Assembly (NCBI GenBank): GCA_040954595.2
Contig: JBECUI020000029.1
Coordinates: 289,333 to 353,332, forward strand
Direction: 5' to 3'
Length of the DNA stretch: 64,000 nucleotides
From: Balanoglossus misakiensis
Taxonomy: Eukaryota; Animalia; Hemichordata
In this document: in pieces, positions 332 through 32,434 of the stretch
Position numbering within the stretch: the stretch's first letter is position 1
Layout of the letters: each line of letters opens with the position of its first letter
Translations under genes and position numbers: made by a program
The notes under the pieces: model-generated
What the model saw: only the letters and a program-made list of their open reading frames with translations
What the model was told of the DNA's origin: nothing
Databases searched by the model: none

Positions 332-364
332 GTGAGTGTAATTGCAAATTTGCCTATTCTAGAT

Positions 365-541
365 CTGTAATGGAAATGGAGAAAGTACCTTATATTTTCT
401 GTAAAATAGACATTTAATTGGCAAGCCGTCCTGCATCAATTATTAATTGTGTACATGCACTAAAGCGCCCTCACTGCTGGGTGTGTTGTATGGTCTTTAA
501 CCCTGTTTCAAATTAGAGTACTTTCTGCAATTTCAAGACAG
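365..541. mobile_element. 177-bp non-autonomous TIR element (MITE-like) in every 452-bp monomer (representative copy)
   Basis: Left end CTGTAATGGAAATGGAGAAAGTAC versus reverse complement of right end CTGTCTTGAAATTGCAGAAAGTAC (imperfect TIR). Flanked by AT on both sides within AGAT...ATCT. Absent from 274/275/265-bp monomers. Confidence 0.8.
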
Positions 542-3500
542 ATCTTACGTGCCATTGGAGAGCTCCATTGACTGGTCATTCATACTGTTTTCATTCATTC
601 ATTGCGGCATCAATATATTTTATCTATTCTAGCCAAAGAGCTTGGCACCTGTTGAAATGAACTCATCTGCTGTGGGCCAGTTTATTGGTGGCAGTTGAGC
701 TGAGGAGAGCACCTTCCTTCCCGGCACGCCACCAAGTAAAGTTCCACGCCGCCCACCACAGATGCCAGCATTCATTCATGCGAGTGAGTGTAATTGCAAA
801 TTTGCCTATTCTAGATTCTTACGTGCCATTGGAGAGCTCCATTGACTGGTCATTCATACTGTTTTCATTCATTCATTGCGGCATCAATATATTTTATCTA
901 TTCTAGCCAAAGAGCTTGGCACCTGTTGAAATGAACTCATCTGCTGTGGGCCAGTTTATTGGTGGCAGTTGAGCTGAGCAGAGCACCTTCCTTCCCGGCA
1001 CGCCACCAAGTAAAGTTCCACGCCGCCCACCACAGATGCCAGCATTCATTCATGCGAGTGAGTGTAATTGCAAATTTGCCTATTCTAGAATCTTACGTGC
1101 CATTGGAGAGCTCCATTGACTGGTCATTCATACTGTTTTCATTCATTCATTGCGGCATCAATATATTTTATCTATTCTAGCCAAAGAGCTTGGCACCTGT
1201 TGAAATGAACTCATCTGCTGTGGGCCAGTTTATTGGTGGCAGTTGAGCTGAGGAGAGCACCTTCCTTCCCGGCACGCCACCAAGTAAAGTTCCACGCCGC
1301 CCACCACAGATGCCAGCATTCATTCATGCGAGTGAGTGTAATTGCAAATTTGCCTATTCTAGATCTGTAATGGAAATGGAGAAAGTACCTTATATTTTCT
1401 GTAAAATAGACATTTAATTGGCAAGCCGTCCTGCATCAATTATTAATTGTGTACATGCACTAAAGCGCCCTCACTGCTGGGTGTGTTGTATGGTCTTTAA
1501 CCCTGTTTCAAATTAGAGTACTTTCTGCAATTTCAAGACAGATCTTACGTGCCATTGGAGAGCTCCATTGACTGGTCATTCATACTGTTTTCATTCATTC
1601 ATTGCGGCATCAATATATTTTATCTATTCTAGCCAAAGAGCTTGGCACCTGTTGAAATGAACTCATCTGCTGTGGGCCAGTTTATTGGTGGCAGTTGAGC
1701 TGAGGAGAGCACCTTCCTTCCCGGCACGCCACCAAGTAAAGTTCCACGCCGCCCACCACAGATGCCAGCATTCATTCATGCGAGTGAGTGTAATTGCAAA
1801 TTTGCCTATTCTAGATCTGTAATGGAAATGGAGAAAGTACCTTATATTTTCTGTAAAATAGACATTTAATTGGCAAGCCGTCCTGCATCAATTATTAATT
1901 GTGTACATGCACTAAAGCGCCCTCACTGCTGGGTGTGTTGTATGGTCTTTAACCCTGTTTCAAATTAGAGTACTTTCTGCAATTTCAAGACAGATCTTAC
2001 GTGCCATTGGAGAGCTCCATTGACTGGTCATTCATACTGTTTTCATTCATTCATTGCGGCATCAATATATTTTATCTATTCTAGCCAAAGAGCTTGGCAC
2101 CTGTTGAAATGAACTCATCTGCTGTGGGCCAGTTTATTGGTGGCAGTTGAGCTGAGGAGAGCACCTTCCTTCCCGGCACGCCACCAAGTAAAGTTCCACG
2201 CCGCCCACCACAGATGCCAGCATTCATTCATGCGAGTGAGTGTAATTGCAAATTTGCCTATTCTAGATCTGTAATGGAAATGGAGAAAGTACCTTATATT
2301 TTCTGTAAAATAGACATTTAATTGGCAAGCCGTCCTGCATCAATTATTAATTGTGTACATGCACTAAAGCGCCCTCACTGCTGGGTGTGTTGTATGGTCT
2401 TTAACCCTGTTTCAAATTAGAGTACTTTCTGCAATTTCAAGACAGATCTTACGTGCCATTGGAGAGCTCCATTGACTGGTCATTCATACTGTTTTCATTC
2501 ATTCATTGCGGCATCAATATATTTTATCTATTCTAGCCAAAGAGCTTGGCACCTGTTGAAATGAACTCATCTGCTGTGGGCCAGTTTATTGGTGGCAGTT
2601 GAGCTGAGGAGAGCACCTTCCTTCCCGGCACGCCACCAAGTAAAGTTCCACGCCGCCCACCACAGATGCCAGCATTCATTCATGCGAGTGAGTGTAATTG
2701 CAAATTTGCCTATTCTAGATCTGTAATGGAAATGGAGAAAGTACCTTATATTTTCTGTAAAATAGACATTTAATTGGCAAGCCGTCCTGCATCAATTATT
2801 AATTGTGTACATGCACTAAAGCGCCCTCACTGCTGGGTGTGTTGTATGGTCTTTAACCCTGTTTCAAATTAGAGTACTTTCTGCAATTTCAAGACAGATC
2901 TTACGTGCCATTGGAGAGCTCCATTGACTGGTCATTCATACTGTTTTCATTCATTCATTGCGGCATCAATATATTTTATCTATTCTAGCCAAAGAGCTTG
3001 GCACCTGTTGAAATGAACTCATCTGCTGTGGGCCAGTTTATTGGTGGCAGTTGAGCTGAGGAGAGCACCTTCCTTCCCGGCACGCCACCAAGTAAAGTTC
3101 CACGCCGCCCACCACAGATGCCAGCATTCATTCATGCGAGTGAGTGTAATTGCAAATTTGCCTATTCTAGATCTGTAATGGAAATGGAGAAAGTACCTTA
3201 TATTTTCTGTAAAATAGACATTTAATTGGCAAGCCGTCCTGCATCAATTATTAATTGTGTACATGCACTAAAGCGCCCTCACTGCTGGGTGTGTTGTATG
3301 GTCTTTAACCCTGTTTCAAATTAGAGTACTTTCTGCAATTTCAAGACAGATCTTACGTGCCATTGGAGAGCTCCATTGACTGGTCATTCATACTGTTTTC
3401 ATTCATTCATTGCGGCATCAATATATTTTATCTATTCTAGCCAAAGAGCTTGGCACCTGTTGAAATGAACTCATCTGCTGTGGGCCAGTTTATTGGTGGC

Positions 3501-6500
3501 AGTTGAGCTGAGGAGAGCACCTTCCTTCCCGGCACGCCACCAAGTAAAGTTCCACGCCGCCCACCACAGATGCCAGCATTCATTCATGCGAGTGAGTGTA
3601 ATTGCAAATTTGCCTATTCTAGATCTGTAATGGAAATGGAGAAAGTACCTTATATTTTCTGTAAAATAGACATTTAATTGGCAAGCCGTCCTGCATCAAT
3701 TATTAATTGTGTACATGCACTAAAGCGCCCTCACTGCTGGGTGTGTTGTATGGTCTTTAACCCTGTTTCAAATTAGAGTACTTTCTGCAATTTCAAGACA
3801 GATCTTACGTGCCATTGGAGAGCTCCATTGACTGGTCATTCATACTGTTTTCATTCATTCATTGCGGCATCAATATATTTTATCTATTCTAGCCAAAGAG
3901 CTTGGCACCTGTTGAAATGAACTCATCTGCTGTGGGCCAGTTTATTGGTGGCAGTTGAGCTGAGGAGAGCACCTTCCTTCCCGGCACGCCACCAAGTAAA
4001 GTTCCACGCCGCCCACCACAGATGCCAGCATTCATTCATGCGAGTGAGTGTAATTGCAAATTTGCCTATTCTAGATCTGTAATGGAAATGGAGAAAGTAC
4101 CTTATATTTTCTGTAAAATAGACATTTAATTGGCAAGCCGTCCTGCATCAATTATGAATTGTGTACATGCACTAAAGCGCCCTCACTGCTGGGTGTGTTG
4201 TATGGTCTTTAACCCTGTTTCAAATTAGAGTACTTTCTGCAATTTCAAGACAGATCTTACGTGCCATTGGAGAGCTCCATTGACTGGTCATTCATACTGT
4301 TTTCATTCATTCATTGCGGCATCAATATATTTTATCTATTCTAGCCAAAGAGCTTGGCACCTGTTGAAATGAACTCATCTGCTGTGGGCCAGTTTATTGG
4401 TGGCAGTTGAGCTGAGGAGAGCACCTTCCTTCCCGGCACGCCACCAAGTAAAGTTCCACGCCGCCCACCACAGATGCCAGCATTCATTCATGCGAGTGAG
4501 TGTAATTGCAAATTTGCCTATTCTAGATCTGTAATGGAAATGGAGAAAGTACCTTATATTTTCTGTAAAATAGACATTTAATTGGCAAGCCGTCCTGCAT
4601 CAATTATGAATTGTGTACATGCACTAAAGCGCCCTCACTGCTGGGTGTGTTGTATGGTCTTTAACCCTGTTTCAAATTAGAGTACTTTCTGCAATTTCAA
4701 GACAGATCTTACGTGCCATTGGAGAGCTCCATTGACTGGTCATTCATACTGTTTTCATTCATTCATTGCGGCATCAATATATTTTATCTATTCTAGCCAA
4801 AGAGCTTGGCACCTGTTGAAATGAACTCATCTGCTGTGGGCCAGTTTATTGGTGGCAGTTGAGCTGAGCAGAGCACCTTCCTTCCCGGCACGCCACCAAG
4901 TAAAGTTCCACGCCGCCCACCACAGATGCCAGCATTCATTCATGCGAGTGAGTGTAATTGCAAATTTGCCTATTCTAGATCTGTAATGGAAATGGAGAAA
5001 GTACCTTATATTTTCTGTAAAATAGACATTTAATTGGCAAGCCGTCCTGCATCAATTATGAATTGTGTACATGCACTAAAGCGCCCTCACTGCTGGGTGT
5101 GTTGTATGGTCTTTAACCCTGTTTCAAATTAGAGTACTTTCTGCAATTTCAAGACAGATCTTACGTGCCATTGGAGAGCTCCATTGACTGGTCATTCATA
5201 CTGTTTTCATTCATTCATTGCGGCATCAATATATTTTATCTATTCTAGCCAAAGAGCTTGGCACCTGTTGAAATGAACTCATCTGCTGTGGGCCAGTTTA
5301 TTGGTGGCAGTTGAGCTGAGGAGAGCACCTTCCTTCCCGGCACGCCACCAAGTAAAGTTCCACGCCGCCCACCACAGATGCCAGCATTCATTCATGCGAG
5401 TGAGTGTAATTGCAAATTTGCCTATTCTAGATCTGTAATGGAAATGGAGAAAGTACCTTATATTTTCTGTAAAATAGACATTTAATTGGCAAGCCGTCCT
5501 GCATCAATTATTAATTGTGTACATGCACTAAAGCGCCCTCACTGCTGGGTGTGTTGTATGGTCTTTAACCCTGTTTCAAATTAGAGTACTTTCTGCAATT
5601 TCAAGACAGATCTTACGTGCCATTGGAGAGCTCCATTGACTGGTCATTCATACTGTTTTCATTCATTCATTGCGGCATCAATATATTTTATCTATTCTAG
5701 CCAAAGAGCTTGGCACCTGTTGAAATGAACTCATCTGCTGTGGGCCAGTTTATTGGTGGCAGTTGAGCTGAGGAGAGCACCTTCTTTCCCGGCACGCCAC
5801 CAAGTAAAGTTCCACGCCGCCCACCACAGATGCCAGCATTCATTCATGCGAGTGAGTGTAATTGCAAATTTGCCTATTTACGTGCCATTGGAGAGCTCCA
5901 TTGACTGGTCATTCATACTGTTTTCATTCATTCATTGCGGCATCAATATATTTTATCTATTCTAGCCAAAGAGCTTGGCACCTGTTGAAATGAACTCATC
6001 TGCTGTGGGCCAGTTTATTGGTGGCAGTTGAGCTGAGGAGAGCACCTTCCTTCCCGGCACGCCACCAAGTAAAGTTCCACGCCGCCCACCACAGATGCCA
6101 GCATTCATTCATGCGAGTGAGTGTAATTGCAAATTTGCCTATTCTAGAATCTTACGTGCCATTGGAGAGCTCCATTGACTGGTCATTCATACTGTTTTCA
6201 TTCATTCATTGCGGCATCAATATATTTTATCTATTCTAGCCGAAGAGCTTGGCACCTGTTGAAATGAACTCATCTGCTGTGGGCCAGTTTATTGGTGGCA
6301 GTTGAGCTGAGGAGAGCACCTTCCTTCCCGGCACGCCACCAAGTAAAGTTCCACGCCGCCCACCACAGATGCCAGCATTCATTCATGCGAGTGAGTGTAA
6401 TTGCAAATTTGCCTATTCTAGATCTGTAATGGAAATGGAGAAAGTACCTTATATTTTCTGTAAAATAGACATTTAATTGGCAAGCCGTCCTGCATCAATT

Positions 6501-9500: not shown

Positions 9501-10845
9501 CAAAGAGCTTGGCACCTGTTGAAATGAACTCATCTGCTGTGGGCCAGTTTATTGGTGGCAGTTGAGCTGAGCAGAGCACCTTCCTTCCCGGCACGCCACC
9601 AAGTAAAGTTCCACGCCGCCCACCACAGATGCCAGCATTCATTCATGCGAGTGAGTGTAATTGCAAATTTGCCTATTCTAGATCTGTAATGGAAATGGAG
9701 AAAGTACCTTATATTTTCTGTAAAATAGACATTTAATTGGCAAGCCGTCCTGCATCAATTATGAATTGTGTACATGCACTAAAGCGCCCTCACTGCTGGG
9801 TGTGTTGTATGGTCTTTAACCCTGTTTCAAATTAGAGTACTTTCTGCAATTTCAAGACAGATCTTACGTGCCATTGGAGAGCTCCATTGACTGGTCATTC
9901 ATACTGTTTTCATTCATTCATTGCGGCATCAATATATTTTATCTATTCTAGCCAAAGAGCTTGGCACCTGTTGAAATGAACTCATCTGCTGTGGGCCAGT
10001 TTATTGGTGGCAGTTGAGCTGAGAAGAGCACCTTCCTTCCCGGCACGCCACCAAGTAAAGTTCCACGCCGCCCACCACAGATGCCAGCATTCATTCATGC
10101 GAGTGAGTGTAATTGCAAATTTGCCTATTCTAGATCTGTAATGGAAATGGAGAAAGTACCTTATATTTTCTGTAAAATAGACATTTAATTGGCAAGCCGT
10201 CCTGCATCAATTATGAATTGTGTACATGCACTAAAGCGCCCTCACTGCTGGGTGTGTTGTATGGTCTTTAACCCTGTTTCAAATTAGAGTACTTTCTGCA
10301 ATTTCAAGACAGATCTTACGTGCCATTGGAGAGCTCCATTGACTGGTCATTCATACTGTTTTCATTCATTCATTGCGGCATCAATATATTTTATCTATTC
10401 TAGCCAAAGAGCTTGGCACCTGTTGAAATGAACTCATCTGCTGTGGGCCAGTTTATTGGTGGCAGTTGAGCTGAGGAGAGCACCTTCCTTCCCGGCACGC
10501 CACCAAGTAAAGTTCCACGCCGCCCACCACAGATGCCAGCATTCATTCATGCGAGTGAGTGTAATTGCAAATTTGCCTATTCTAGATCTGTAATGGAAAT
10601 GGAGAAAGTACCTTATATTTTCTGTAAAATAGACATTTAATTGGCAAGCCGTCCTGCATCAATTATTAATTGTGTACATGCACTAAAGCGCCCTCACTGC
10701 TGGGTGTGTTGTATGGTCTTTAACCCTGTTTCAAATTAGAGTACTTTCTGCAATTTCAAGACAGATCTTACGTGCCATTGGAGAGCTCCATTGACTGGTC
10801 ATTCATACTGTTTTCATTCATTCATTGCGGCATCAATATATTTTA

Positions 10846-11269
10846 CAGCCGAAATTATGAAAGGTCGCCGATTCAATATGTGATCTAGACGTCCTGTGTG
10901 CACTGAACACACGATGTGTTTATCTAACACAAACAACAGAACCTCTCATAAAAGAGATGCGGTATCATTAGACTAATTACAGATGGTAGTCTGGAAACAC
11001 GCTCCCCCTCAGAGAGAGTTGTTTACTTGGGTACGATGTCAAAGTTTAATCTCAAAGTGTATACGCTTTATGTTGAGAGTGTACCCAAGTAAACAACTCT
11101 CTCTGAGGGGGAGCGTGTTTCCAGACTACCATCTGTAATTAGTCTAATGATACCGCATCTCTTTTATGAGAGGTTCTGTTGTTTGTGTTAGATAAACACA
11201 TCGTGTGTTCAGTGCACACAGGACGTCTAGATCACATATTGAATCGGCGACCTTTCATAATTTCGGCTG
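10846..11269. mobile_element. 424-bp MITE with 189-bp terminal inverted repeats and TA target-site duplication (Tc1/mariner-type)
   Basis: CAGCCGAAATTATGAAAGG...CCTTTCATAATTTCGGCTG. Arms 10846-11034 and 11081-11269 with a 46-bp spacer. TA at 10844-45 and 11270-71; the empty site TTTTATCT is seen in the other monomers. Confidence 0.95.
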
Positions 11270-11383
11270 TATCTATTCTAGCCAAAGAGCTTGGCACCTG
11301 TTGAAATGAACTCATCTGCTGTGGGCCAGTTTATTGGTGGCAGTTGAGCTGAGGAGAGCACCTTCCTTCCCGGCACGCCACCA

Positions 11384-13190
11384 AGTACAGTTCCACGTGC
11401 ATTCCTGGCCCTGGTTTTATTTATGTTTACAGACAATATTGCATTTTTGTACAAGTATTTTAATCAACTATAAATTTTGAATGTGTCATTTACCTGAACC
11501 GGTCATGTTGACCAGAATGATACATTTCTGCCTTCACTCACCCTATAAATATGTGATTGAGACATAGGTCATTTGCATAAGCTAACATACCAGAAAGTAA
11601 GCATATCTGTTGTTTTCCCTGTGTCACTGCCATCAAAGTAAAAATTAGACGTTGTGTAGAGCAAACTCCAATTTTTTGTTCTCAATAAACATGGATGAAT
11701 TACATAGAATGTGTTTGTTGTTTACAGTCTTTAAATGACACATTAGATTATGCACTTTACAAAACGTTTCTGAGAAACAAGTGACTAACTAGTTTCTTTC
11801 CACTGTGGCCAACGTGGTTCACTGTTTGTGTCAGAATCTCTCTGTTTTGCAAGGATTTTGAAATCATAGTGGTGACATGCATAGTGAAAATCAGCTACTT
11901 TCAAATGTCCGTCATGTTCATGCTGTAATTGAATTTTCAAAGCTGGGCTGGCGTGTTTTTTCTTATTTACATAAGTATCACACTTTATACATGTATCTTC
12001 ATGGGGTTTTTTGAGTCCCGTATTTAGGTCCTCTCTCACAATTTTACGAAATATCGTATAACTGACAGTTGTTCTTCCCAGAAGAGATTGGTTGGTTATG
12101 AACTCTCGGTGTAACTGCGATATACTGTGGGCCGGCGCCAGGTACGGTTTAAATCGAGGATTCCTGCAGTAGTGAGATTCTACAATTCTGTGCCTGCGTA
12201 CGTGTTCAGTGATATCAGTCAGCAAATTTGGATTGAGTTTCCGACGATGCCCTTTGTGTCGGCCCCTTGCATCTGGCATCAGACCAGTAAAGTTCCATGT
12301 GCATTCCTGGCCCTGGTTTTATTTATGTTTACAGACAATATTGCATTTTTGTACAAGTATTTTAATCAACTATAAATTTTGAATGTGTCATTTACCTGAA
12401 CCGGTCATGTTGACCAGAATGATACATTTCTGCCTTCACTCACCCTATAAATATGTGATTGAGACATAGGTCATTTGCATAAGCTAACATACCAGAAAGT
12501 AAGCATATCTGATGTTTTCCCTGTGTCACTGCCATCAAAGTAAAAATTAGACGTTGTGTAGAGCAAACTCCAATTTTTTGTTCTCAATAAACATGGATGA
12601 ATTACATAGAATGTGTTTGTTGTTTACAGTCTTTAAATGACACATTAGATTATGCACTTTACAAAACGTTTCTGAGAAACAAGTGACTAACTAGTTTCTT
12701 TCCACTGTGGCCAACGTGGTTCACTGTTTGTGTCAGAATCTCTCTGTTTTGCAAGGATTTTGAAATCATAGTGGTGACATGCATAGTGAAAATCAGCTAC
12801 TTTCAAATGTCCGTCATGTTCATGCTGTAATTGAATTTTCAAAGCTGGGCTGGCGTGTTTTTTCTTATTTACATAAGTATCACACTTTATACATGTATCT
12901 TCATGGGGTTTTCTGAGTCCCGTATTTAGGTCCTCTCTCACAATTTTACGAAATATCGTATAACTGACAGTTGTTCTTCCCAGAAGAGATTGGTTGGTTA
13001 TGAACTCTCGGTGTAACTGCGATATACTGTGGTCCGGCGCCAGGTACGGTTTAAATCGAGGATTCCTGCAGTAGTGAGATTCTACAATTCTGTGCCTGCG
13101 TACGTGTTCAGTGATATCAGTCAGCAAATTTGGATTGAGTTTCCGACGATGCCCTTTGTGTCGGCCCCTTGCATCTGGCATCAGACCAGT
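11384..13190. repeat. 902-bp tandem duplication inside the cassette
   Basis: 11384-12285 repeats as 12286-13187 with a few substitutions. AGT microhomology at the join (12286-88). ORF ends 11785 and 12687 differ by 902. Confidence 0.97.
11785..12279 (-). pseudogene. 5'-truncated duplicate of the transposase N-terminal-half ORF (164 aa)
   Basis: Matches the last 164 aa of the 12687 ORF apart from D>A and R>K. Created by the 902-bp duplication. Confidence 0.85.
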
Positions 13191-13643
13191 TGAACAGTGC
13201 ATCATTTTGCTTAGAACGGTTCTAGTCCGCCTCTCACTAATGCCAAATAATTTCAGGAATGCATTTTTGCAGACAGTAACCGTTTCACCGCCTTCATTCA
13301 CCAGGTGATAACGAACCGATTTCTTGTGTGACTTCATCTGCATATCCATCAGTTTGTAGAGCATCAAGTTCTGTTCATTATACACGCGACCATCAAAATA
13401 TTTTCTCGTGGTGCCTAAAACATGCGTACTCCCAAGCTTCCGCAGACAATTCCCTTGAACGCAGGCGCATTCCAAGGAAAGACTGTCAATATCTGGAAAA
13501 GGGCGATTTTTCCTTGGTTTTTGTCTCGGACACGTCTTTTTAGAATTCCTACGTGGCTTGTTGGCTCGAGCTGACAGTTCGGTTCTGCGTTGCTGCCACA
13601 CAGGAATGGGTTCCCACGCATAAGCAACTCCCCGGCAGGCCAT
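12687..13643 (-). CDS. Transposase N-terminal half (Sola1/DUF7869-like; putative DNA-binding and CxxC region)
   Basis: Motifs VCKNAFLKLFGIS, DARGRH, ESHYCR...YL, VSYTIFRKI, KPHEDTCIKCD are typical of the region preceding the catalytic core in this family. First ATG at 13643; intact frame. Confidence 0.8.
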   Translation of the reverse strand: MACRGVAYAWEPIPVWQQRRTELSARANKPRRNSKKTCPRQKPRKNRPFPDIDSLSLECACVQGNCLRKLGSTHVLGTTRKYFDGRVYNEQNLMLYKLMDMQMKSHKKSVRYHLVNEGGETVTVCKNAFLKLFGISERRTRTVLSKMMHCSTGLMPDARGRHKGHRRKLNPNLLTDITEHVRRHRIVESHYCRNPRFKPYLAPDHSISQLHREFITNQSLLGRTTVSYTIFRKIVREDLNTGLRKPHEDTCIKCDTYVNKKKHASPALKIQLQHEHDGHLKVADFHYACHHYDFKILAKQRDSDTNSEPRWPQWKETS

Positions 13644-13690
13644 GGTCACAGCTGAAGTATTTGTTCAAGTACTGACTGACTAAACGCGGC

Positions 13691-14824
13691 ATGGAACAAA
13701 CGAACGAACGACTTCACGTTCGGAAAAAAAATCGTTGCGAGCTGTTGGGTGCATGCCTCTATAGTTGTCGGCAACCGTTCTTTTTTATTGCTAAACAATG
13801 CTGTCAGAGCATGGAAGGTGTGGTGGAAAACGAACAGAGGTTTTGTACGACCAACGATTGGATGGTGCTACATATGGACTTCCACAAGTCATTGCCGGTT
13901 CCTAAACTCAGCTCTGAAGACTTTTACTTTAAATCGAAATTGCAAATGAAGCTCCTTGGAATTTACAACGGGACAACGGAAAAGATGCATTGTTATGTAT
14001 GGACAGAGCTCGATAGCAGAAAGTCTCCCGATGAAGTTATTACCTGTCTAAATCACTTTTTTTATAACTCGGGTGTGACCAGCAGACATGCAGTTATTTA
14101 CAGCGACAACTGCCGTGCCGAATTCAAGTGTGGGAAGTTAATGTTTTACTATGACTATCTGTTACGAAAGGGCGTGTTTCGACGAATTGACTATAAAACT
14201 CTTGTGGCTGGACACACGTACTCCACCTGTGACCGAGTTTTTGCGTCCATTGAAAGGCATGCAAGTCGTTTCCAGAGTATAGAGACACCTCACGATTGGA
14301 CATCTGTGATTCGAGGATCTTCTCTGAATGGGAACATTGGAGTTACGGAGATGACTCACAGAGACTTTTTCAATTATTCTGATTTCCTGAAAAATGAGTA
14401 CGTTGTGCGTTATGCAGATACAAACAATGTAACTTTTTACTACCAAGCCATGCACTATTTTAATTTTGGAGAAGGAGAAAGGCTTGATACCGACGGCAAC
14501 CTCAGAACATTTAGTCATGCAGATAAAGTTTGGGTGAGAACATCTCTAGATCCAAGCGAGACCCCGATTGTAGTCGACTTTAGAAAGAAGAAGCAGAACC
14601 GGCGTTTACAAGATTGTACGCTGAACAAACTTTATCAGGAACGTCGACCACTGGCGAGCAAAGTTTGGCGGGATCTTCAGAGTTTAGCCAAAAATTACCT
14701 GTCTCCGGAGGCAATAGAATTTTATAGGAATCTACCGCTTCAGGAGAGTAGTGGCACCTCTGCAGACCCGTACGCCTTTCATGATGATGACGACGACGAT
14801 GATGATGATATGGGCGGTGGTTGA
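13691..14824 (+). CDS. Transposase catalytic half (RNase H-like DDD core, Sola1/DUF7869-like)
   Basis: Motifs HMDFHKSLPVP, CYVWTE...SPDEVITCL, IYSDNC, GHTYSTCDRVFASIE; acidic tail; AATAAA overlaps the stop (14824-14829). The true start may be ATG 13811. Confidence 0.85.
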   Translation: MEQTNERLHVRKKNRCELLGACLYSCRQPFFFIAKQCCQSMEGVVENEQRFCTTNDWMVLHMDFHKSLPVPKLSSEDFYFKSKLQMKLLGIYNGTTEKMHCYVWTELDSRKSPDEVITCLNHFFYNSGVTSRHAVIYSDNCRAEFKCGKLMFYYDYLLRKGVFRRIDYKTLVAGHTYSTCDRVFASIERHASRFQSIETPHDWTSVIRGSSLNGNIGVTEMTHRDFFNYSDFLKNEYVVRYADTNNVTFYYQAMHYFNFGEGERLDTDGNLRTFSHADKVWVRTSLDPSETPIVVDFRKKKQNRRLQDCTLNKLYQERRPLASKVWRDLQSLAKNYLSPEAIEFYRNLPLQESSGTSADPYAFHDDDDDDDDDMGGG

Positions 14825-14985
14825 ATAAACTGTCCTTTTCATGACGACAGTGATTTTGGATATTTGATGTGCGTGCACAGTTTATATGTAATATTTTCAC
14901 ACGAACGAGTTTTGACTGAATTTGATTAAAGAATGTACTCGATAATTAACAAATGTGCTGAATCGTGGTTATTATGTTGTTAATT

Positions 14986-15025
14986 TTTGTTTGTTTGTTT
15001 GTTTGTTTGTTTGTTTGTTTGTTTG
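14986..15025 (+). repeat. (TTTG)10 microsatellite
   Basis: Read directly; also present in copy 2 near 33730-33769. Confidence 0.95.
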
Positions 15026-15158
15026 TAAACAATTTCCGTTCATTCAACTGGCTACAAAGTTGGATTTTTGTACTGGGAAGCGATAAACTCGCACATCAAA
15101 ACCGGGGAGACTCGATCATTTTTCCCTGCAGGTAGCCTGAAAAGCACCCGGGCAGAGA

Positions 15159-15231
15159 TTACGTCATATATGGTCCACTTTAATACGAAATTATGCAAAT
15201 GTGACATTTCACGGAAACGGCGTATATAAAA
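15159..15231 (+). promoter_or_regulatory. Putative Pol II promoter of the SET gene
   Basis: CRE-like TTACGTCA (15159), octamer ATGCAAAT (15193) and TATAAAA (15225-15231), about 95 bp upstream of ATG 15324. Confidence 0.55.
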
Positions 15232-15323
15232 GCGACCCTGGGCTATTGTTCGGAATGCGTCATCGACGAGAGAGTGACTGATAATTCTTCTACCTCGAGT
15301 CAACCATTCTGTATATACTGAAC

Positions 15324-16664
15324 ATGGCTAGCTGGCGCAGGAAGAGACAAGGCAATGTGCGGTCTGTAATCAACGAACGGCACCGCTCAGTTCAGTGTCC
15401 CTTTCTTCAAAAGTGGATCGGTGAGCAATTGGTATTTTCAGGTCGTTCAGAGGATGAAGTCCAGTCCAGTACTGTATTTGAGAGCTACAAATGTTGGGTT
15501 GAAAACTATTCGTCGGCGGACAATCAAGTAATGATTATGGTTACTAAAGCTCGATTTTTCAAGGTGAGAATGATCGCATTTTTCTTTCCCCCCCCCCCCT
15601 CCCTCCCTCCCTCCCTCCCCCAAGGGACTCGTTTTCTGTCTCTTTTAAACCTGTAACTTAACGAAAAGGAAGTTTTTCACATATCTCTTCGTTGACACTA
15701 TAGCAATTTGGAGCGCGGATGCTTCAAGAGAAGAGCGTTACCAAATCAAAGTCGGCCGGGGTTAATATTTATAGAGGTGTTCGTCTGAAAGCTGGTTCGC
15801 GAAGAATCTCAACGGGGAAACCTGAGCACAGTGTACTTCAGACCAGGGCAAGGGCATTTCTTGATGACGCCAGCGTGACCGTTCCGATCGAGGTAAGAAT
15901 GGTGTTTTGTTTGGACTAGGACAATAGAACGTTGCAATGAGTGTGTCAATGGGTGTCCAAGTGCAAACGTGGTCTGCTTCTGTCCACAAATGCCATTAAT
16001 TTTTGGCAGGATTTATAAAATTGTCAATGAAGAATACAAAAATGAAAAACAACAGTTAATAGCAAACTGGTAGGATTGCAAGGGCTTGTAAAACGGTACA
16101 CACTGTACCAGGAAGTTTGCAACACTAATGAAGAATGTATATGATATATTTAGGTGAGAACTGTTCGCGATCGCCGGGACGCAGGACGGTGCGCGTTTTC
16201 GACGAGGGATATTCAAGCCTGGGACGTCGTCTGCGAATACCGGGGCACGGTTATTAGCGTTGAAGAAGCTAGTCGGCGTGATGAGCTTTACAGGGCAGAG
16301 GGGAAACGACCACGCATGTTCCATCTCTACATTGGAAAGAGACACGTTGTGTGAGTGTATCACTTAGTCGAATATATGGTCATATATTGCAAAGCATCTG
16401 TCGAAATAGAAAACGTAATATTGTCTATATTTTCCTCATTAACGCAGCATTGACGGATACGATGTCCCAGCCGGTGAAGAAAATTTAGCAGGCCTAATAA
16501 ATCACAGTCAGCAGAACGCCAACTTGGTACCGGTTCGGATCGGAGAGCGCCTGGTTTTCTTTGCAACCAGGAATCTTTGTCAGGGAGTAGAGCTTTTGTA
16601 TGATTACGGTGACGGGGGTGAAGAGGATTTCTTCAGTGGTTCTCAAACTTTTCCTGAAAATTAA
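15324..16664 (+). CDS. Spliced SET-domain protein (SETD8/PR-Set7-like) with N-terminal winged-helix-like region; exons 15324-15563, 15704-15892, 16154-16350, 16448-16664; 280 aa
   Basis: Three GT-AG introns with matching phases (0, 0, 2) give one open frame. SET motifs GRCAFSTRDI, VCEYRG, IDG, LAGLINHS, ELLYDYGD. Confidence 0.9.
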
Positions 16665-17570
16665 GGCATTAACACATCAACGCTTCGGGGTGTCGTAACG
16701 GCGGCGCGGCGGGGGGGGGGGGGGGGACGTGAAAATGTTTGTATCAGGAACAAAATTCCCGTGCAAATCACCTTGATCCGGGTGGGTGGACTATTCGCGA
16801 CAAATGTTGAAATCATACAAAGCATTTTACTTAATTAACCCATTTTTTTCATTTATTTGTTTACAGTTTACAACGTCATAGAGAAGTTGAACTAGAGACT
16901 GGATCAGCGTGGGTGACACCATAGTACACCAATGTTTTCTTCAGTTTGATTCAATTGTAATTTAAAACTGAGATTGCCTAACGCTTTCCCAGATTTTTTT
17001 AACCACTGAGAAACTGTGGGTTTTTTTCTGGGTTTTGGTGCGAGGTGATCTCAGTCAGTGGTGTTAATTTAATTAATCATTTTCTTTTCCTATTTACGTC
17101 GACTGAAATGTATTTTGATAGGTGATAGTCATACCATAAAAAAAATCTTACGGCGCGACTGCCAAAATGTACATTTATTTGTCCGTTCCAAGTTATTTTG
17201 TGTATGTGTGATGGGTGCCGGTGACTGTGCAGGGTTGATTTCCCTAGAGCGACTGTTATATTCGTTTTCCAACGATGATGAATTTACATGTTATTTGCTT
17301 GGCATTTTGACGCAGAGACACTTCTGAAAACACAAACCTATTAATTATGCCACGGGTGTAAATTGATCACATTAAAAGAGGCTTTAGACGTTTGCCGCGA
17401 GCTCCTGGTGGGCAGAATCTTGTCAGCCCAAATTTGACTATAAGTACATAGCCAATGATGTGACGCTCTCCCACATCCTTCGCCGCGCCTTTTCGCTGAT
17501 TTACAGCATCTTGCGTAAACACTGTCATTTGATCTTGCTTGGCAGAAGTCAACTTGCTCTATACTACATT

Positions 17571-17936
17571 ATGGCGGCCAAGCTCAACTGCATATCAGAT
17601 AATGCCAAGGAGCGTTTGAGAGGCATCCTCGCCAGAAGGAGTCGCGTTTCCGGTGACTGTGTGCTCTGGACGGGTGCAGCTTGTCGAAACGGCTATGGCT
17701 CTATTACGTTCAGAGATGAGAACACTCTAACCGCCTATGTCCATCACATTGCACTCCTAATTAACGGAGTGCAATTGGTGGGCAGGCGGTTAGAGTGTTC
17801 TCATCTTTGCAACGAAAAGCTATGCATCCGCCCAGAGCACATTGTCCAGGAAACGCGACTCCTAAACATTTCACGAAAGACGTGCTTTAAATCCCCAAAA
17901 GGGGAGTGTCACCACGATCCCAGGTGCCTAAGGTGA
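17571..17936 (+). CDS. His-Cys box / His-Me finger endonuclease (zinc-binding loop homing-endonuclease type)
   Basis: CVLWTG...GYG, YVHH, SHLCNEKLCIRPEHI...E...N.SRKTC...CHHDPRC. ATG at 17571. The stop lies within AG|GTGAGT, a possible splice donor. Confidence 0.85.
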   Translation: MAAKLNCISDNAKERLRGILARRSRVSGDCVLWTGAACRNGYGSITFRDENTLTAYVHHIALLINGVQLVGRRLECSHLCNEKLCIRPEHIVQETRLLNISRKTCFKSPKGECHHDPRCLR

Positions 17937-18844
17937 GTAATCCTCTTCTCATTTGATATGTATTGTGTGACCCTGCAGTTGAAACGCTTTCATCAATAAT
18001 TTGCGGCGCGTGGGTAATCTCGGTGTTATTGACAATGCAGCCGGCCCAAACATTTTTAAATTAACACTGTTTCTGACTGTATTAACGAAATGTCCAATTT
18101 GCAAGTAGCCTATAGACAACCCTTTTGAATGAGTTTTGTCTCGTTGAGATTTTATACATAAGGAACAATCTAGATTTATTTTAGAAGACACTGTTCTTTT
18201 AAAACAGCTAGCATAATACAGCTAAATTTCGGAATTTCCGGACAATTTTCGGAATTCCTTTTAAATTTGAGAAATTTTTCATCAGATATAAGTGTTACTA
18301 TTTATTGGACATGTTTTTATCATTGTTTACTTTTTAAGGTCATTCTCACCCCCCCCCCCCCAAAAAAAGCCGCTTTAGGCTTCATGTTCAGTAAAAAATC
18401 TGGAAAGTTCAGCTGAATTTTACACTGATCACACATTTTTGGGAAGGTCTGGCGCAAAATAAAGGATGACAAATGTAAATCTAATGTCACATTTGTAAAC
18501 CTCTAAGTATTGTACACTCATTCTATTAAGTATATGCAAATAGTACGGATAATTTTTTCGGAATGTGGAATTCCGAAATTAGTTCGGAACGTGTTAGCAG
18601 TGAAGAGATCACCACTGAGGGTTGGAAGGCCTTGCCAGAAATTAACGCGTAAAGTACGCCCTCACAGGCCATGTAAACAAGGTCAAATAAGGCCGTCTGG
18701 CAAACGAATGATTAATTCAACGCGCCATTTGAGCCGAGCTGAGTTGGTCTGAGTTGCGTATCACACAGACTTAGGCTGAATGTCAGTGGAGTAACCAGTC
18801 CGTTTTAGATTTACCAATGATGTGAATTTAATTTCTTCACCCAG

Positions 18845-19250
18845 AAAAACAGAACACAACTTGTCTGCAACATGATGCTGGAGGTGACACATGACAGAGA
18901 AGTGGATCCGCGTTGTCAACACAGATGCCAGCATTCAAAAGGGGAGTGCCACCTGCTAAAATCAACTCATCTGCTGTTGGCCCATTTTACCTGTGGCAAC
19001 TGTTCAGAGGAGACAACGTTTATTCCGTGCAAGCCAACACGCAATGTTGGGGTCTACCTGTCAACACAGATGCAAGCATTCATGTGAGTGAGTATCAGGA
19101 CTGACCTTGTATTTGCTGAATAATTCATAATGCCTATTTTAGAATTCTTAGAGGCATTTGGAGTTCATTGCCTGGTCAACCAAACTACACCCCTTAACAG
19201 CTGAAACAAAATGCGTATTGTGTTCATTCATTCATTGCATCAATATATAT
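18845..19250 (+). other. Diverged homolog of the satellite monomer (exon 18845-~19087 plus intron-like sequence)
   Basis: Shares CACCTG..AAAT.AACTCATCTGCTGT.GGCC, CACAGATGC.AGCATTCAT, GAGTGAGT, TGCCTATT.TAGAATTCTTA and TTCATTCATTCATTGC with the monomer, in the same order. Acceptor TTTCTTCACCCAG at 18844. Confidence 0.85.
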
Positions 19251-19555
19251 AGGCAACATGAGTATCAAGTAGCACTATTTGTTTACGATTGTATTCATGA
19301 AAACTTCCCACTAACAATTCCACAGTTAATATTGAACACATTTATCCAACAAGGTCAAAAGAAAAAGGGAATCTTCTGGTTCCAAAATACGCCACAAATG
19401 TGGGTCAACATACAGTGAAATATTATGGTGCTCAAATATGCAACATATCAAATCTGTCTCATCAAAGTCATGCTTTAAAAAAGAATTGAAAAGGTATTAT
19501 TTATCCATTTGACTGCTGTATTTTCAGAAGGAAAACAAACTGAATTTGGTTTTTC

Positions 19556-22500
19556 AAGTACCTTATATTTTCTGTAAAATAGACATTTAATTGGCAAGCC
19601 GTCCTGCATCAATTATTAATTGTGTACATGCACTAAAGCGCCCTCACTGCTGGGTGTGTTGTATGGTCTTTAACCCTGTTTCAAATTAGAGTACTTTCTG
19701 CAATTTCAAGACAGATCTTACGTGCCATTGGAGAGCTCCATTGACTGGTCATTCATACTGTTTTCATTCATTCATTGCGGCATCAATATATTTTATCTAT
19801 TCTAGCCAAAGAGCTTGGCACCTGTTGAAATGAACTCATCTGCTGTGGGCCAGTTTATTGGTGGCAGTTGAGCTGAGGAGAGCACCTTCCTTCCCGGCAC
19901 GCCACCAAGTAAAGTTCCACGCCGCCCACCACAGATGCCAGCATTCATTCATGCGAGTGAGTGTAATTGCAAATTTGCCTATTCTAGATCTGTAATGGAA
20001 ATGGAGAAAGTACCTTATATTTTCTGTAAAATAGACATTTAATTGGCAAGCCGTCCTGCATCAATTATTAATTGTGTACATGCACTAAAGCGCCCTCACT
20101 GCTGGGTGTGTTGTATGGTCTTTAACCCTGTTTCAAATTAGAGTACTTTCTGCAATTTCAAGACAGATCTTACGTGCCATTGGAGAGCTCCATTGACTGG
20201 TCATTCATACTGTTTTCATTCATTCATTGCGGCATCAATATATTTTATCTATTCTAGCCAAAGAGCTTGGCACCTGTTGAAATGAACTCATCTGCTGTGG
20301 GCCAGTTTATTGGTGGCAGTTGAGCTGAGGAGAGCACCTTCCTTCCCGGCACGCCACCAAGTAAAGTTCCACGCCGCCCACCACAGATGCCAGCATTCAT
20401 TCATGCGAGTGAGTGTAATTGCAAATTTGCCTATTCTAGATCTGTAATGGAAATGGAGAAAGTACCTTATATTTTCTGTAAAATAGACATTTAATTGGCA
20501 AGCCGTCCTGCATCAATTATTAATTGTGTACATGCACTAAAGCGCCCTCACTGCTGGGTGTGTTGTATGGTCTTTAACCCTGTTTCAAATTAGAGTACTT
20601 TCTGCAATTTCAAGACAGATCTTACGTGCCATTGGAGAGCTCCATTGACTGGTCATTCATACTGTTTTCATTCATTCATTGCGGCATCAATATATTTTAT
20701 CTATTCTAGCCAAAGAGCTTGGCACCTGTTGAAATGAACTCATCTGCTGTGGGCCAGTTTATTGGTGGCAGTTGAGCTGAGGAGAGCACCTTCCTTCCCG
20801 GCACGCCACCAAGTAAAGTTCCACGCCGCCCACCACAGATGCCAGCATTCATTCATGCGAGTGAGTGTAATTGCAAATTTGCCTATTCTAGATCTGTAAT
20901 GGAAATGGAGAAAGTACCTTATATTTTCTGTAAAATAGACATTTAATTGGCAAGCCGTCCTGCATCAATTATTAATTGTGTACATGCACTAAAGCGCCCT
21001 CACTGCTGGGTGTGTTGTATGGTCTTTAACCCTGTTTCAAATTAGAGTACTTTCTGCAATTTCAAGACAGATCTTACGTGCCATTGGAGAGCTCCATTGA
21101 CTGGTCATTCATACTGTTTTCATTCATTCATTGCGGCATCAATATATTTTATCTATTCTAGCCAAAGAGCTTGGCACCTGTTGAAATGAACTCATCTGCT
21201 GTGGGCCAGTTTATTGGTGGCAGTTGAGCTGAGGAGAGCACCTTCCTTCCCGGCACGCCACCAAGTAAAGTTCCACGCCGCCCACCACAGATGCCAGCAT
21301 TCATTCATGCGAGTGAGTGTAATTGCAAATTTGCCTATTCTAGATCTGTAATGGAAATGGAGAAAGTACCTTATATTTTCTGTAAAATAGACATTTAATT
21401 GGCAAGCCGTCCTGCATCAATTATTAATTGTGTACATGCACTAAAGCGCCCTCACTGCTGGGTGTGTTGTATGGTCTTTAACCCTGTTTCAAATTAGAGT
21501 ACTTTCTGCAATTTCAAGACAGATCTTACGTGCCATTGGAGAGCTCCATTGACTGGTCATTCATACTGTTTTCATTCATTCATTGCGGCATCAATATATT
21601 TTATCTATTCTAGCCAAAGAGCTTGGCACCTGTTGAAATGAACTCATCTGCTGTGGGCCAGTTTATTGGTGGCAGTTGAGCTGAGGAGAGCACCTTCCTT
21701 CCCGGCACGCCACCAAGTAAAGTTCCACGCCGCCCACCACAGATGCCAGCATTCATTCATGCGAGTGAGTGTAATTGCAAATTTGCCTATTCTAGATCTG
21801 TAATGGAAATGGAGAAAGTACCTTATATTTTCTGTAAAATAGACATTTAATTGGCAAGCCGTCCTGCATCAATTATTAATTGTGTACATGCACTAAAGCG
21901 CCCTCACTGCTGGGTGTGTTGTATGGTCTTTAACCCTGTTTCAAATTAGAGTACTTTCTGCAATTTCAAGACAGATCTTACGTGCCATTGGAGAGCTCCA
22001 TTGACTGGTCATTCATACTGTTTTCATTCATTCATTGCGGCATCAATATATTTTATCTATTCTAGCCAAAGAGCTTGGCACCTGTTGAAATGAACTCATC
22101 TGCTGTGGGCCAGTTTATTGGTGGCAGTTGAGCTGAGGAGAGCACCTTCTTTCCCGGCACGCCACCAAGTAAAGTTCCACGCCGCCCACCACAGATGCCA
22201 GCATTCATTCATGCGAGTGAGTGTAATTGCAAATTTGCCTATTTACGTGCCATTGGAGAGCTCCATTGACTGGTCATTCATACTGTTTTCATTCATTCAT
22301 TGCGGCATCAATATATTTTATCTATTCTAGCCAAAGAGCTTGGCACCTGTTGAAATGAACTCATCTGCTGTGGGCCAGTTTATTGGTGGCAGTTGAGCTG
22401 AGGAGAGCACCTTCCTTCCCGGCACGCCACCAAGTAAAGTTCCACGCCGCCCACCACAGATGCCAGCATTCATTCATGCGAGTGAGTGTAATTGCAAATT

Positions 22501-25500
22501 TGCCTATTCTAGATCTGTAATGGAAATGGAGAAAGTACCTTATATTTTCTGTAAAATAGACATTTAATTGGCAAGCCGTCCTGCATCAATTATTAATTGT
22601 GTACATGCACTAAAGCGCCCTCACTGCTGGGTGTGTTGTATGGTCTTTAACCCTGTTTCAAATTAGAGTACTTTCTGCAATTTCAAGACAGATCTTACGT
22701 GCCATTGGAGAGCTCCATTGACTGGTCATTCATACTGTTTTCATTCATTCATTGCGGCATCAATATATTTTATCTATTCTAGCCAAAGAGCTTGGCACCT
22801 GTTGAAATGAACTCATCTGCTGTGGGCCAGTTTATTGGTGGCAGTTGAGCTGAGGAGAGCACCTTCCTTCCCGGCACGCCACCAAGTAAAGTTCCACGCC
22901 GCCCACCACAGATGCCAGCATTCATTCATGCGAGTGAGTGTAATTGCAAATTTGCCTATTCTAGAATTCTTACGTGCCATTGGAGAGCTCCATTGACTGG
23001 TCATTCATACTGTTTTCATTCATTCATTGCGGCATCAATATATTTTATCTATTCTAGCCAAAGAGCTTGGCACCTGTTGAAATGAACTCATCTGCTGTGG
23101 GCCAGTTTATTGGTGGCAGTTGAGCTGAGGAGAGCACCTTCCTTCCCGGCACGCCACCAAGTAAAGTTCCACGCCGCCCACCACAGATGCCAGCATTCAT
23201 TCATGCGAGTGAGTGTAATTGCAAATTTGCCTATTCTAGATCTGTAATGGAAATGGAGAAAGTACCTTATATTTTCTGTAAAATAGACATTTAATTGGCA
23301 AGCCGTCCTGCATCAATTATTAATTGTGTACATGCACTAAAGCGCCCTCACTGCTGGGTGTGTTGTATGGTCTTTAACCCTGTTTCAAATTAGAGTACTT
23401 TCTGCAATTTCAAGACAGATCTTACGTGCCATTGGAGAGCTCCATTGACTGGTCATTCATACTGTTTTCATTCATTCATTGCGGCATCAATATATTTTAT
23501 CTATTCTAGCCAAAGAGCTTGGCACCTGTTGAAATGAACTCATCTGCTGTGGGCCAGTTTATTGGTGGCAGTTGAGCTGAGGAGAGCACCTTCTTTCCCG
23601 GCACGCCACCAAGTAAAGTTCCACGCCGCCCACCACAGATGCCAGCATTCATTCATGCGAGTGAGTGTAATTGCAAATTTGCCTATTCTAGAATCTTACG
23701 TGCCATTGGAGAGCTCCATTGACTGGTCATTCATACTGTTTTCATTCATTCATTGCGGCATCAATATATTTTATCTATTCTAGCCAAAGAGCTTGGCACC
23801 TGTTGAAATGAACTCATCTGCTGTGGGCCAGTTTATTGGTGGCAGTTGAGCTGAGGAGAGCACCTTCTTTCCCGGCACGCCACCAAGTAAAGTTCCACGC
23901 CGCCCACCACAGATGCCAGCATTCATTCATGCGAGTGAGTGTAATTGCAAATTTGCCTATTTACGTGCCATTGGAGAGCTCCATTGACTGGTCATTCATA
24001 CTGTTTTCATTCATTCATTGCGGCATCAATATATTTTATCTATTCTAGCCAAAGAGCTTGGCACCTGTTGAAATGAACTCATCTGCTGTGGGCCAGTTTA
24101 TTGGTGGCAGTTGAGCTGAGGAGAGCACCTTCCTTCCCGGCACGCCACCAAGTAAAGTTCCACGCCGCCCACCACAGATGCCAGCATTCATTCATGCGAG
24201 TGAGTGTAATTGCAAATTTGCCTATTCTAGATCTGTAATGGAAATGGAGAAAGTACCTTATATTTTCTGTAAAATAGACATTTAATTGGCAAGCCGTCCT
24301 GCATCAATTATTAATTGTGTACATGCACTAAAGCGCCCTCACTGCTGGGTGTGTTGTATGGTCTTTAACCCTGTTTCAAATTAGAGTACTTTCTGCAATT
24401 TCAAGACAGATCTTACGTGCCATTGGAGAGCTCCATTGACTGGTCATTCATACTGTTTTCATTCATTCATTGCGGCATCAATATATTTTATCTATTCTAG
24501 CCAAAGAGCTTGGCACCTGTTGAAATGAACTCATCTGCTGTGGGCCAGTTTATTGGTGGCAGTTGAGCTGAGGAGAGCACCTTCTTTCCCGGCACGCCAC
24601 CAAGTAAAGTTCCACGCCGCCCACCACAGATGCCAGCATTCATTCATGCGAGTGAGTGTAATTGCAAATTTGCCTATTCTAGAATCTTACGTGCCATTGG
24701 AGAGCTCCATTGACTGGTCATTCATACTGTTTTCATTCATTCATTGCGGCATCAATATATTTTATCTATTCTAGCCAAAGAGCTTGGCACCTGTTGAAAT
24801 GAACTCATCTGCTGTGGGCCAGTTTATTGGTGGCAGTTGAGCTGAGGAGAGCACCTTCTTTCCCGGCACGCCACCAAGTAAAGTTCCACGCCGCCCACCA
24901 CAGATGCCAGCATTCATTCATGCGAGTGAGTGTAATTGCAAATTTGCCTATTCTAGAATCTTACGTGCCATTGGAGAGCTCCATTGACTGGTCATTCATA
25001 CTGTTTTCATTCATTCATTGCGGCATCAATATATTTTATCTATTCTAGCCAAAGAGCTTGGCACCTGTTGAAATGAACTCATCTGCTGTGGGCCAGTTTA
25101 TTGGTGGCAGTTGAGCTGAGGAGAGCACCTTCCTTCCCGGCACGCCACCAAGTAAAGTTCCACGCCGCCCACCACAGATGCCAGCATTCATTCATGCGAG
25201 TGAGTGTAATTGCAAATTTGCCTATTCTAGAATCTTACGTGCCATTGGAGAGCTCCATTGACTGGTCATTCATACTGTTTTCATTCATTCATTGCGGCAT
25301 CAATATATTTTATCTATTCTAGCCAAAGAGCTTGGCACCTGTTGAAATGAACTCATCTGCTGTGGGCCAGTTTATTGGTGGCAGTTGAGCTGAGGAGAGC
25401 ACCTTCCTTCCCGGCACGCCACCAAGTAAAGTTCCACGCCGCCCACCACAGATGCCAGCATTCATTCATGCGAGTGAGTGTAATTGCAAATTTGCCTATT

Positions 25501-30141: not shown

Positions 30142-30528
30142 TGCATTCCTGGCCCTGGTTTTATTTATGTTTACAGACAATATTGCATTTTTGTACAAGT
30201 ATTTTAATCAACTATAAATTTTGAATGTGTCATTTACCTGAACCGGTCATGTTGACCAGAATGATACATTTCTGCCTTCACTCACCCTATAAATATGTGA
30301 TTGAGACATAGGTCATTTGCATAAGCTAACATACCAGAAAGTAAGCATATCTGTTGTTTTCCCTGTGTCACTGCCATCAAAGTAAAAATTAGACGTTGTG
30401 TAGAGCAAACTCCAATTTTTTGTTCTCAATAAACATGGATGAATTACATAGAATGTGTTTGTTGTTTACAGTCTTTAAATGACACATTAGATTATGCACT
30501 TTACAAAACGTTTCTGAGAAACAAGTGA

Positions 30529-31023
30529 CTAACTAGTTTCTTTCCACTGTGGCCAACGTGGTTCACTGTTTGTGTCAGAATCTCTCTGTTTTGCAAGGAT
30601 TTTGAAATCATAGTGGTGACATGCATAGTGAAAATCAGCTACTTTCAAATGTCCGTCATGTTCATGCTGTAATTGAATTTTCAAAGCTGGGCTGGCGTGT
30701 TTTTTCTTATTTACATAAGTATCACACTTTATACATGTATCTTCATGGGGTTTTTTGAGTCCCGTATTTAGGTCCTCTCTCACAATTTTACGAAATATCG
30801 TATAACTGACAGTTGTTCTTCCCAGAAGAGATTGGTTGGTTATGAACTCTCGGTGTAACTGCGATATACTGTGGGCCGGCGCCAGGTACGGTTTAAATCG
30901 AGGATTCCTGCAGTAGTGAGATTCTACAATTCTGTGCCTGCGTACGTGTTCAGTGATATCAGTCAGCAAATTTGGATTGAGTTTCCGACGATGCCCTTTG
31001 TGTCGGCCCCTTGCATCTGGCAT
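30529..31023 (-). pseudogene. 5'-truncated duplicate of transposase N-half, copy 2
   Basis: Same as 11785-12279, offset 18744. Confidence 0.85.
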
Positions 31024-31430
31024 CAGACCAGTAAAGTTCCATGTGCATTCCTGGCCCTGGTTTTATTTATGTTTACAGACAATATTGCATTTTTGTACAA
31101 GTATTTTAATCAACTATAAATTTTGAATGTGTCATTTACCTGAACCGGTCATGTTGACCAGAATGATACATTTCTGCCTTCACTCACCCTATAAATATGT
31201 GATTGAGACATAGGTCATTTGCATAAGCTAACATACCAGAAAGTAAGCATATCTGATGTTTTCCCTGTGTCACTGCCATCAAAGTAAAAATTAGACGTTG
31301 TGTAGAGCAAACTCCAATTTTTTGTTCTCAATAAACATGGATGAATTACATAGAATGTGTTTGTTGTTTACAGTCTTTAAATGACACATTAGATTATGCA
31401 CTTTACAAAACGTTTCTGAGAAACAAGTGA

Positions 31431-32387: not shown

Positions 32388-32434
32388 GGTCACAGCTGAA
32401 GTATTTGTTCAAGTACTGACTGACTAAACGCGGC

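Follow-up and report, generated by a model that had tools for sequence, protein, structure and literature searches.

Two monomer lengths and their junctions

How did one tandem array come to hold monomers of two lengths? The window, by which we mean the whole stretch of 64,000 nucleotides analysed (Balanoglossus misakiensis, contig JBECUI020000029.1, positions 289,333 to 353,332 of the forward strand), is filled by a satellite of 452-bp and 265- to 275-bp monomers, which an 8-kb gene-bearing segment interrupts twice. A preliminary description, made from the sequence, had taken the short monomers for footprints of repeated excision of a 177-bp element with terminal inverted repeats (TIR). Anchored on the body common to all monomers, our census counted 123 monomer junctions in the window; 71 are filled and read TAGAT-[177 bp]-ATCTT, and the other 52 are empty. 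The filled site, with its CTGT and ACAG ends, and the four empty joints of that description (here a, t, d and x) were all recovered, as follows:

361..364 (+), left flank AGAT; the AT at 363-364 is likely one copy of a 2-bp target duplication
365..541 (+), 177-bp non-coding TIR element (MITE-like), CTGT...ACAG; 71 full copies in the window
365..388 (+), left terminal inverted repeat, 24 bp; 19/24 match to the right one
518..541 (-), right terminal inverted repeat
542..545 (+), right flank ATCT; its AT at 542-543 likely forms the other copy of that duplication
548..806 (+), body common to all monomers, 259 bp; 123 copies, 7 haplotypes
812..820 (+), first occurrence of empty joint t, TAGATTCTT, 274 bp; 6/123
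1086..1094 (+), first occurrence of empty joint a, TAGAATCTT, 274 bp; 30/123
5873..5882 (+), first occurrence of empty joint x, CCTATTTACG, 265 bp; 11/123
22962..22971 (+), first occurrence of empty joint d, TAGAATTCTT, 275 bp; 5/123

The core of joint d, AGAATTCT, is an 8-bp palindrome. A 273-bp joint reading TAGATCTT, which is both the precise product and the one expected from slippage between the two AGATCT copies, was found at none of the 123 junctions in the window and was not among the joints listed for run X1, so that its absence, noted in the preliminary description, holds. Slippage between the AGATCT copies was rejected as the source of the short monomers because no joint of that type occurs. 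Joints that retain both AT copies, GATC-GATC joints and GT-AG splice-type joints were likewise seen at 0 of the 123 junctions in the window, and intron loss via RNA was rejected for want of a GT-AG product among them.

Length variation is confined to the joint. Across its 123 copies the 259-bp body shows six substitution alleles at five sites and not one indel, and the 71 inserts vary at one site (in 7 copies), also with zero indels. The joint, by comparison, has four alleles in the window and five when contigs are included. Three random indels would all land in a 12-nt stretch of 274 with a probability of about 8e-5; this estimate is rough, as it leaves aside the one-substitution difference between a and t. 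The commonest body haplotype is found ahead of filled, a, t and d joints alike.

Ends, flanks and relatives of the 177-bp element

The 19/24 match between the TIRs was reached by none of 100,000 shuffles of the element, which has no ORF of 100 aa. An Rfam search of the monomer region 90-1100 gave no match, and the TIR pattern had 0 matches in metagenome contigs. From the window alone, elements of 179, 177, 175 or 173 bp, with duplications of 0, 2, 4 or 6 bp, are all possible, because the AGAT and ATCT flanks are palindromic. A search for dispersed copies, which the preliminary description had proposed, turned up diverged relatives in public contigs with AT directly outside their ends. At least three contigs of run X1 and at least two of run X4 start (AT)n-CTGT, and at least one X4 contig ends ACAG-AT-(AT)n, continuing into (AT)n behind 543; each shows one element end at a time. 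An autonomous partner would be expected to have CTGT..AGAAAGTAC ends.

As the dispersed copies have (AT)n flanks, AT is the sole constant flank, and we dropped the GATC and AGATCT duplication readings; a 175-bp element with a GATC duplication was rejected on this ground. A 2-bp duplication and none look the same in the dispersed copies since (AT)n is degenerate. With AT directly outside their ends, these copies also tell us that the filled monomers carry the normal flanks of the family. The AT next to the dispersed copies points to a MITE with a 2-bp AT duplication.

Among the matches listed, dispersed pieces differ from the satellite insert at 11 of 81 letters, or at 5 letters and 5 gaps in 81, and one dispersed left end matches the right TIR at one position more than the satellite copy does. 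Because these pieces are diverged, the 71 inserts are nearly uniform and the commonest body haplotype spans joint types, the insertion looks older than the common ancestor of the array. An old insertion in turn favours loss from a filled ancestor, and we infer that the change ran in the direction of loss rather than gain. Younger dispersed copies, identical to the satellite insert, may exist beyond the matches listed.

Probable excision and the chemistry of the joints

We consider it probable, at roughly 60%, that the joints of the short monomers are germline excision footprints of the 177-bp element, made on about five or six occasions and then amplified. A transposase would have cut the AT-flanked element out of the long monomer in the germline about five or six separate times; each break would have been repaired to its own joint, and the repaired monomers would then have been copied via unequal crossing-over. 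The cut probably followed hAT/Ds-type chemistry, each flank being nicked one base in and closed into a hairpin, which is then opened before end-joining. On opening, the left end would offer TAGA-A-TCT and the right end AGA-T-TCTT, from which a would arise as TAGA+A+TCTT, t as TAGA+T+TCTT and d as TAGA+AT+TCTT. The same ends would yield a fifth joint found in contigs only, n, as TAGA+A+TTACG and, with trimming, x. The mobilising transposase is probably encoded outside the window.

Ten cut models were compared by splitting every one of the five joints into a prefix taken from the left end and a suffix taken from the right. With 177-bp ends, a hairpin on the flank whose nick lies one base outside the element was the sole model of the ten to give 5/5 joints without an untemplated base. 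Eight others required two untemplated bases for d and one for n, and one model required more; resection alone, flush hairpins, mariner-type overhangs and other boundaries call for an untemplated AT for d, an A for n, or more. A one-base offset of the nick into the flank is known from Hermes. The hairpin chemistry of the preliminary description thus emerges as the only one of the ten models that fits all five joints, although four of the joints fit deletion of d equally well.

The joints may be set beside those of Ac/Ds. Table 1 of a study of Ds footprints has the last flank base swapped for its complement in 11 of 17 cases, the complement of the other side in 3, a two-base palindromic addition in 1 and a longer deletion in 1, and Ds is cleaved at the flanking 5' nucleotide (PMC1978519). 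As in that table, the element-adjacent base here would have been lost and its complement gained, and three of the joints mirror Ds footprints; one- and two-base palindromic additions and an occasional longer deletion occur, without a precise product (PMC1978519). Unlike Ac/Ds, the satellite site has a likely 2-bp (AT) duplication instead of one of 5-8 bp, the search found no cognate transposase, and the satellite scars are fixed and amplified in higher-order repeats. The flank-hairpin pathway itself covers hAT, Transib, MULE and RAG (PMC5499845).

Number of events

The empty joints recur in fixed settings. With F for a filled monomer, t always lies within F-t-a (6/6) and d within F-d-F (5/5), and the block dFaxFaaaaF is present four times in the array. 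At a SNP lying some 100 bp upstream, T precedes the joint in 11/11 x, 14/30 a and one filled copy, and C in every d and t and in 16/30 a; x is always preceded by the 170T body (11/11). Joint a, standing on both backgrounds, allows two origins, and recombination over 99 bp fits equally well. Because of the fixed higher-order contexts, the 52 empty monomers collapse to about five or six events: the five joint types set the floor, and there were perhaps six.

Public contigs extend the tabulation beyond the window; runs X1 and X4 are one sample, and contig depths were not taken as copy numbers. The X1 contigs hold joints a, d, t and x together with the fifth type, n, of 272 bp, which comes from one contig of that one run. 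Runs X2 and X3 gave the filled form and a only, and in X4 a was the sole empty joint listed. Beyond the window, then, the tabulation added n and no 273-bp joint, but the joints are not all independent events. A 3-base deletion at 604 in X1 and X4 contigs was left out of the satellite indel count because it is identical to the sequence of a diverged paralogue (see below). In X1 contigs, moreover, both GATC sites appear with an extra GATC, 365 is joined to 541 and there are loose ends terminating in GATC; we interpret all of these as Hi-C-like restriction-ligation products and not as alleles.

The claim that the length variants arose by repeated excision is borne out in part: the TIR, the dispersed relatives and the restriction of indels to the joint speak for it, but the amplified events are few and deletion of d fits the joints too. 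If correct, the array would be a natural archive of several excisions that took place at a single site in the germline, their repair products kept and amplified, and transposase action would be a source of satellite monomer length variants. Excision footprints as such are already well known. For satellite monomers that carry them, a literature search, whose coverage lay mostly outside subscription journals, found general reviews only.

A paralogue that reads d and the alternatives to excision

Two features of the gene-bearing segment bear on the alternatives:

17571..17936 (+), His-Me finger endonuclease ORF, PF05551 (E 2e-13), a candidate cutter only if d is ancestral
18936..19249 (+), diverged paralogue of the empty monomer; 194/239 aligned bases identical, 75 gap columns

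The joint of the paralogue, TAGAATTCTTA, lies at 19140-19150, with a second copy near 37879; no variant of it was listed in runs X1 and X4. If the joints come from excision, this d sequence would be a scar that the insertion left at an earlier time. In one X4 contig of low depth, sequence resembling the paralogue (19079) is connected to the element (19556), the letters between them being unread; this hints weakly at an insertion older than the paralogue. We rejected gene conversion of the paralogue by d, since identity ends within 2 bases on its left side and immediately on its right. Contigs also lead from 19248 back to 18950 or 18936 across 27-34 intervening letters, which points to a paralogue-type monomer that builds sister tandem arrays of about 333-340 bp.

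By empty-site logic d would be the pre-insertion site, since the sole empty paralogue reads exactly d, and the joint sequences alone fit excision and deletion of an ancestral d alike because each of the other joints, a, t, n and x, is one contiguous deletion of d. The preliminary description had set against excision the descent of the short joints from one ancestral empty allele by point mutation, or an abundance of 273-bp products; the paralogue goes half way towards the former, whereas the latter are absent (0/123). It is conceivable, if unlikely, that d (AGAATTCT) is an ancestral, never-occupied break hot spot, that a, t, n and x are end-joining deletions across its centre and that the element entered once, losing the central AT. 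The cutter would perhaps be the linked His-Me endonuclease, whose ORF lies about 1.2 kb from the paralogue, and the 8-bp palindrome of d suits such a reading, as does the paralogue itself; by sequence, that endonuclease is a candidate cutter only. An insertion into d would, however, have to delete an A and a T and yet end with the same AT flanks as the dispersed copies, and the expected AGAAT-[element]-ATTCT intermediate was found 0 times, whereas AGAT left ends number 71 and ATCT right ends 74. Never-occupied monomers would moreover share bodies identical to those of filled ones, though the insert looks old. An ancestral d explains the empty joints as well as excision does, and the filled form badly. 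The same endonuclease could drive a homing-like process, in which it cuts AGAATTCT and templated repair spreads the filled monomers, which are immune; a, t, n and x would then be cut-resistant end-joining alleles. Such alleles are seen with engineered gene drives, but we give this version very little credence.

A single loss of the element (or two), with the further joints made by point mutation, slippage and recombination in the array, seems to us a little less probable than an ancestral d. One edit separates the two joints in each of the pairs a-t, a-d and t-d, a becomes n by a 2-nt slip in TCT, and the higher-order structure shows few founders. This would nevertheless crowd 2 to 3 extra indels into some 12 nt while the other 259 nt stayed free of them in all 123 copies; x is not a TCT direct-repeat product, and a d derived by chance must match both the hairpin prediction and the paralogue. 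Direct comparison of the filled site with the paralogue would instead make the element 179 bp long (TCTGT..ACAGA), its insertion removing two target bases, with d as the true empty site and a and t as scars that keep one terminal or palindromic base. The (AT)n flanks fit duplication or deletion alike, and a flush-hairpin model on 179-bp ends yields a, t and x without untemplated bases. The deleted dinucleotide would, though, be AT in the satellite but TA in (AT)n tracts, and n would still be one extra base short. We know of no superfamily that removes two target bases upon insertion, and think this reading highly improbable.

Comparison with known superfamilies

The probable germline excision of a 177-bp element raises the matter of its family. 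Short, non-coding and with TIRs, it has the features of a MITE, and its diverged copies have AT outside both ends, each contig showing a single end that lies in (AT)n. CACTA/EnSpm elements have CAC-type ends, which the CTGT ends do not match, and Ginger elements have TGT..ACA ends and a 4-bp duplication; for a Ginger-type, 175-bp element with GATC duplicated, it is (AT)n that stands outside the dispersed ends. At no symmetric boundary does the satellite site have the TA pair of Tc1/mariner, and the Tc1/mariner overhang model requires untemplated bases for d and n. In length, the likely duplication fits the 2-4 bp given for CACTA/EnSpm (CMC) (PMC4482050). The hAT duplication is 5-8 bp (PMC4482050), against the AT that is all the satellite and dispersed flanks have in common; the hAT transposase has a C/DxxH signature (PMC9587614), and no autonomous partner of the 177-bp element was found in the window or the contigs.

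With ISL2EU, of the PHIS superfamily, the element shares a likely 2-bp AT target duplication and an animal host (PMC4482050). Its sites are, unlike the A|AT|T target described there, G-AT-C in the satellite and T-AT-A in (AT)n, and it starts CT, with CTGT ends, where ISL2EU TIRs usually start GG (PMC4482050). Like KolobokP solo-LTDRs in the published account, it is a non-autonomous TIR unit whose excision is read from assembled tandem structures inside another repeat, with a His-Me endonuclease nearby (PMC9587614). It differs from Kolobok in the TTAA duplications, RR..YY ends and one-sided 1-5 bp deletion footprints given for the latter (PMC9587614), and the linked transposase here is of the DUF7869 type. 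Sola1 MITEs also have AT-rich targets, but their 4-bp AWWT duplication (PMC3845634) is missing at the satellite site, where AGAT faces ATCT, and would be compatible only in the (AT)n copies.

None of the superfamilies checked joins an AT duplication, CTGT ends and flank hairpins, and a described family with such ends may exist beyond them; a literature search for AT-duplicating, microsatellite-targeting elements found none. The 177-bp element is best filed as a MITE outside the superfamilies checked. If the excision reading holds, it would represent a TIR family in which hAT-like flank hairpins go together with CTGT ends and an AT duplication of 2 bp, which would bear on the spread of RAG-like cleavage.

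A second, unrelated MITE lies at 10846-11270. It is about 425 bp long, a near-perfect palindrome with CAG..CTG ends and a TA duplication, and is present at one of 125 monomer sites, the remaining 124 being clean and free of any footprint.

The linked split transposase

The preliminary description had suggested that a split transposase linked to the array was the mobiliser. Its two halves are:

12687..13664 (-), N-terminal half of a split DUF7869 transposase, stop-to-stop frame
13811..14824 (+), C-terminal catalytic half, PF25273 (DUF7869), with D23, D99 and D141

They lie head-to-head on opposite strands (12687-14824, with a second copy at 31431-33568). The best relatives of the C-terminal half are mostly stand-alone proteins of about 280-320 residues, one of them named for Saccoglossus, and its more distant relatives are fused proteins of 600-800 residues that also match the N-terminal half. 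As the closest relatives are stand-alone catalytic halves and the fused ones are more distant, we regard the split as a trait of the lineage. The N-terminal half had no match among proteins of similar length, no transposase locus was confirmed in metagenome, viral or prokaryote contigs, and a literature search found no publications on DUF7869. By its motifs the transposase may be Sola1-like. Judged by eye, its catalytic motifs differ from those in the first of the two parts of a Sola2 alignment (PMC3627910, additional file 10).

The predicted structure of the C-terminal half (pLDDT 93) has a compact core around D23, D99 and D141, with about 40 residues between the second and third catalytic Asp in the model. 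The model aligns best to integrases and Mos1 (Z 9-10.3), and to Hermes with Z 7.3 over chain range 174-602. A wide structure search with it gave RNase H-fold matches, and Foldseek against the PDB gave nothing at E 0.001 or better.

That this transposase excised the element appears very unlikely. Two copies of the segment do lie inside the array, both reading frames are open, and the (AT)n flanks give ATAT, which fits the AWWT duplication described for Sola1 (PMC3845634). Yet all 145 TIR matches (at most 3 mismatches) fall in satellite inserts and none in the segment, the best blastn-short match between element and segment has E = 1.0, and AGAT and ATCT, which flank the element in the satellite, do not form a 4-bp direct repeat. 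The modelled compact core, closest to integrases and mariner-type Mos1 with Hermes lower, speaks against it as well. We put the link no lower than this since the true ends of the segment lie beyond the window.

The gene-bearing segment

Within the His-Me frame, 17637-17863 (second copy near 36375-36600) forms a near-perfect hairpin of about 227 nt, with a folding energy of -154.5 kcal/mol (z = -18 against 200 shuffles); a coding stretch that doubles as a long palindrome is unusual. A SET domain (PF00856), split over at least two exons, lies at 16154-16664 between the transposase and the endonuclease, and is likely cargo of the same mobile unit as these two. The 3' part of the N-terminal half gene is tandemly duplicated (902 bp, 11384-13190), and the array meets this duplication via a short common stretch near 11385-11397. 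At the other side, the segment-array joint falls inside the left TIR of the element, 18 bases from its end (19555-19556 and 38294-38295), and is spanned by contigs of X1 and X4. Apart from the TA MITE, the segment copies at 10771-19979 and 29941-38718 differ in no more than 3 substitutions and 3 homopolymer indels; as the two differ so little, the segment was duplicated recently, together with the array.
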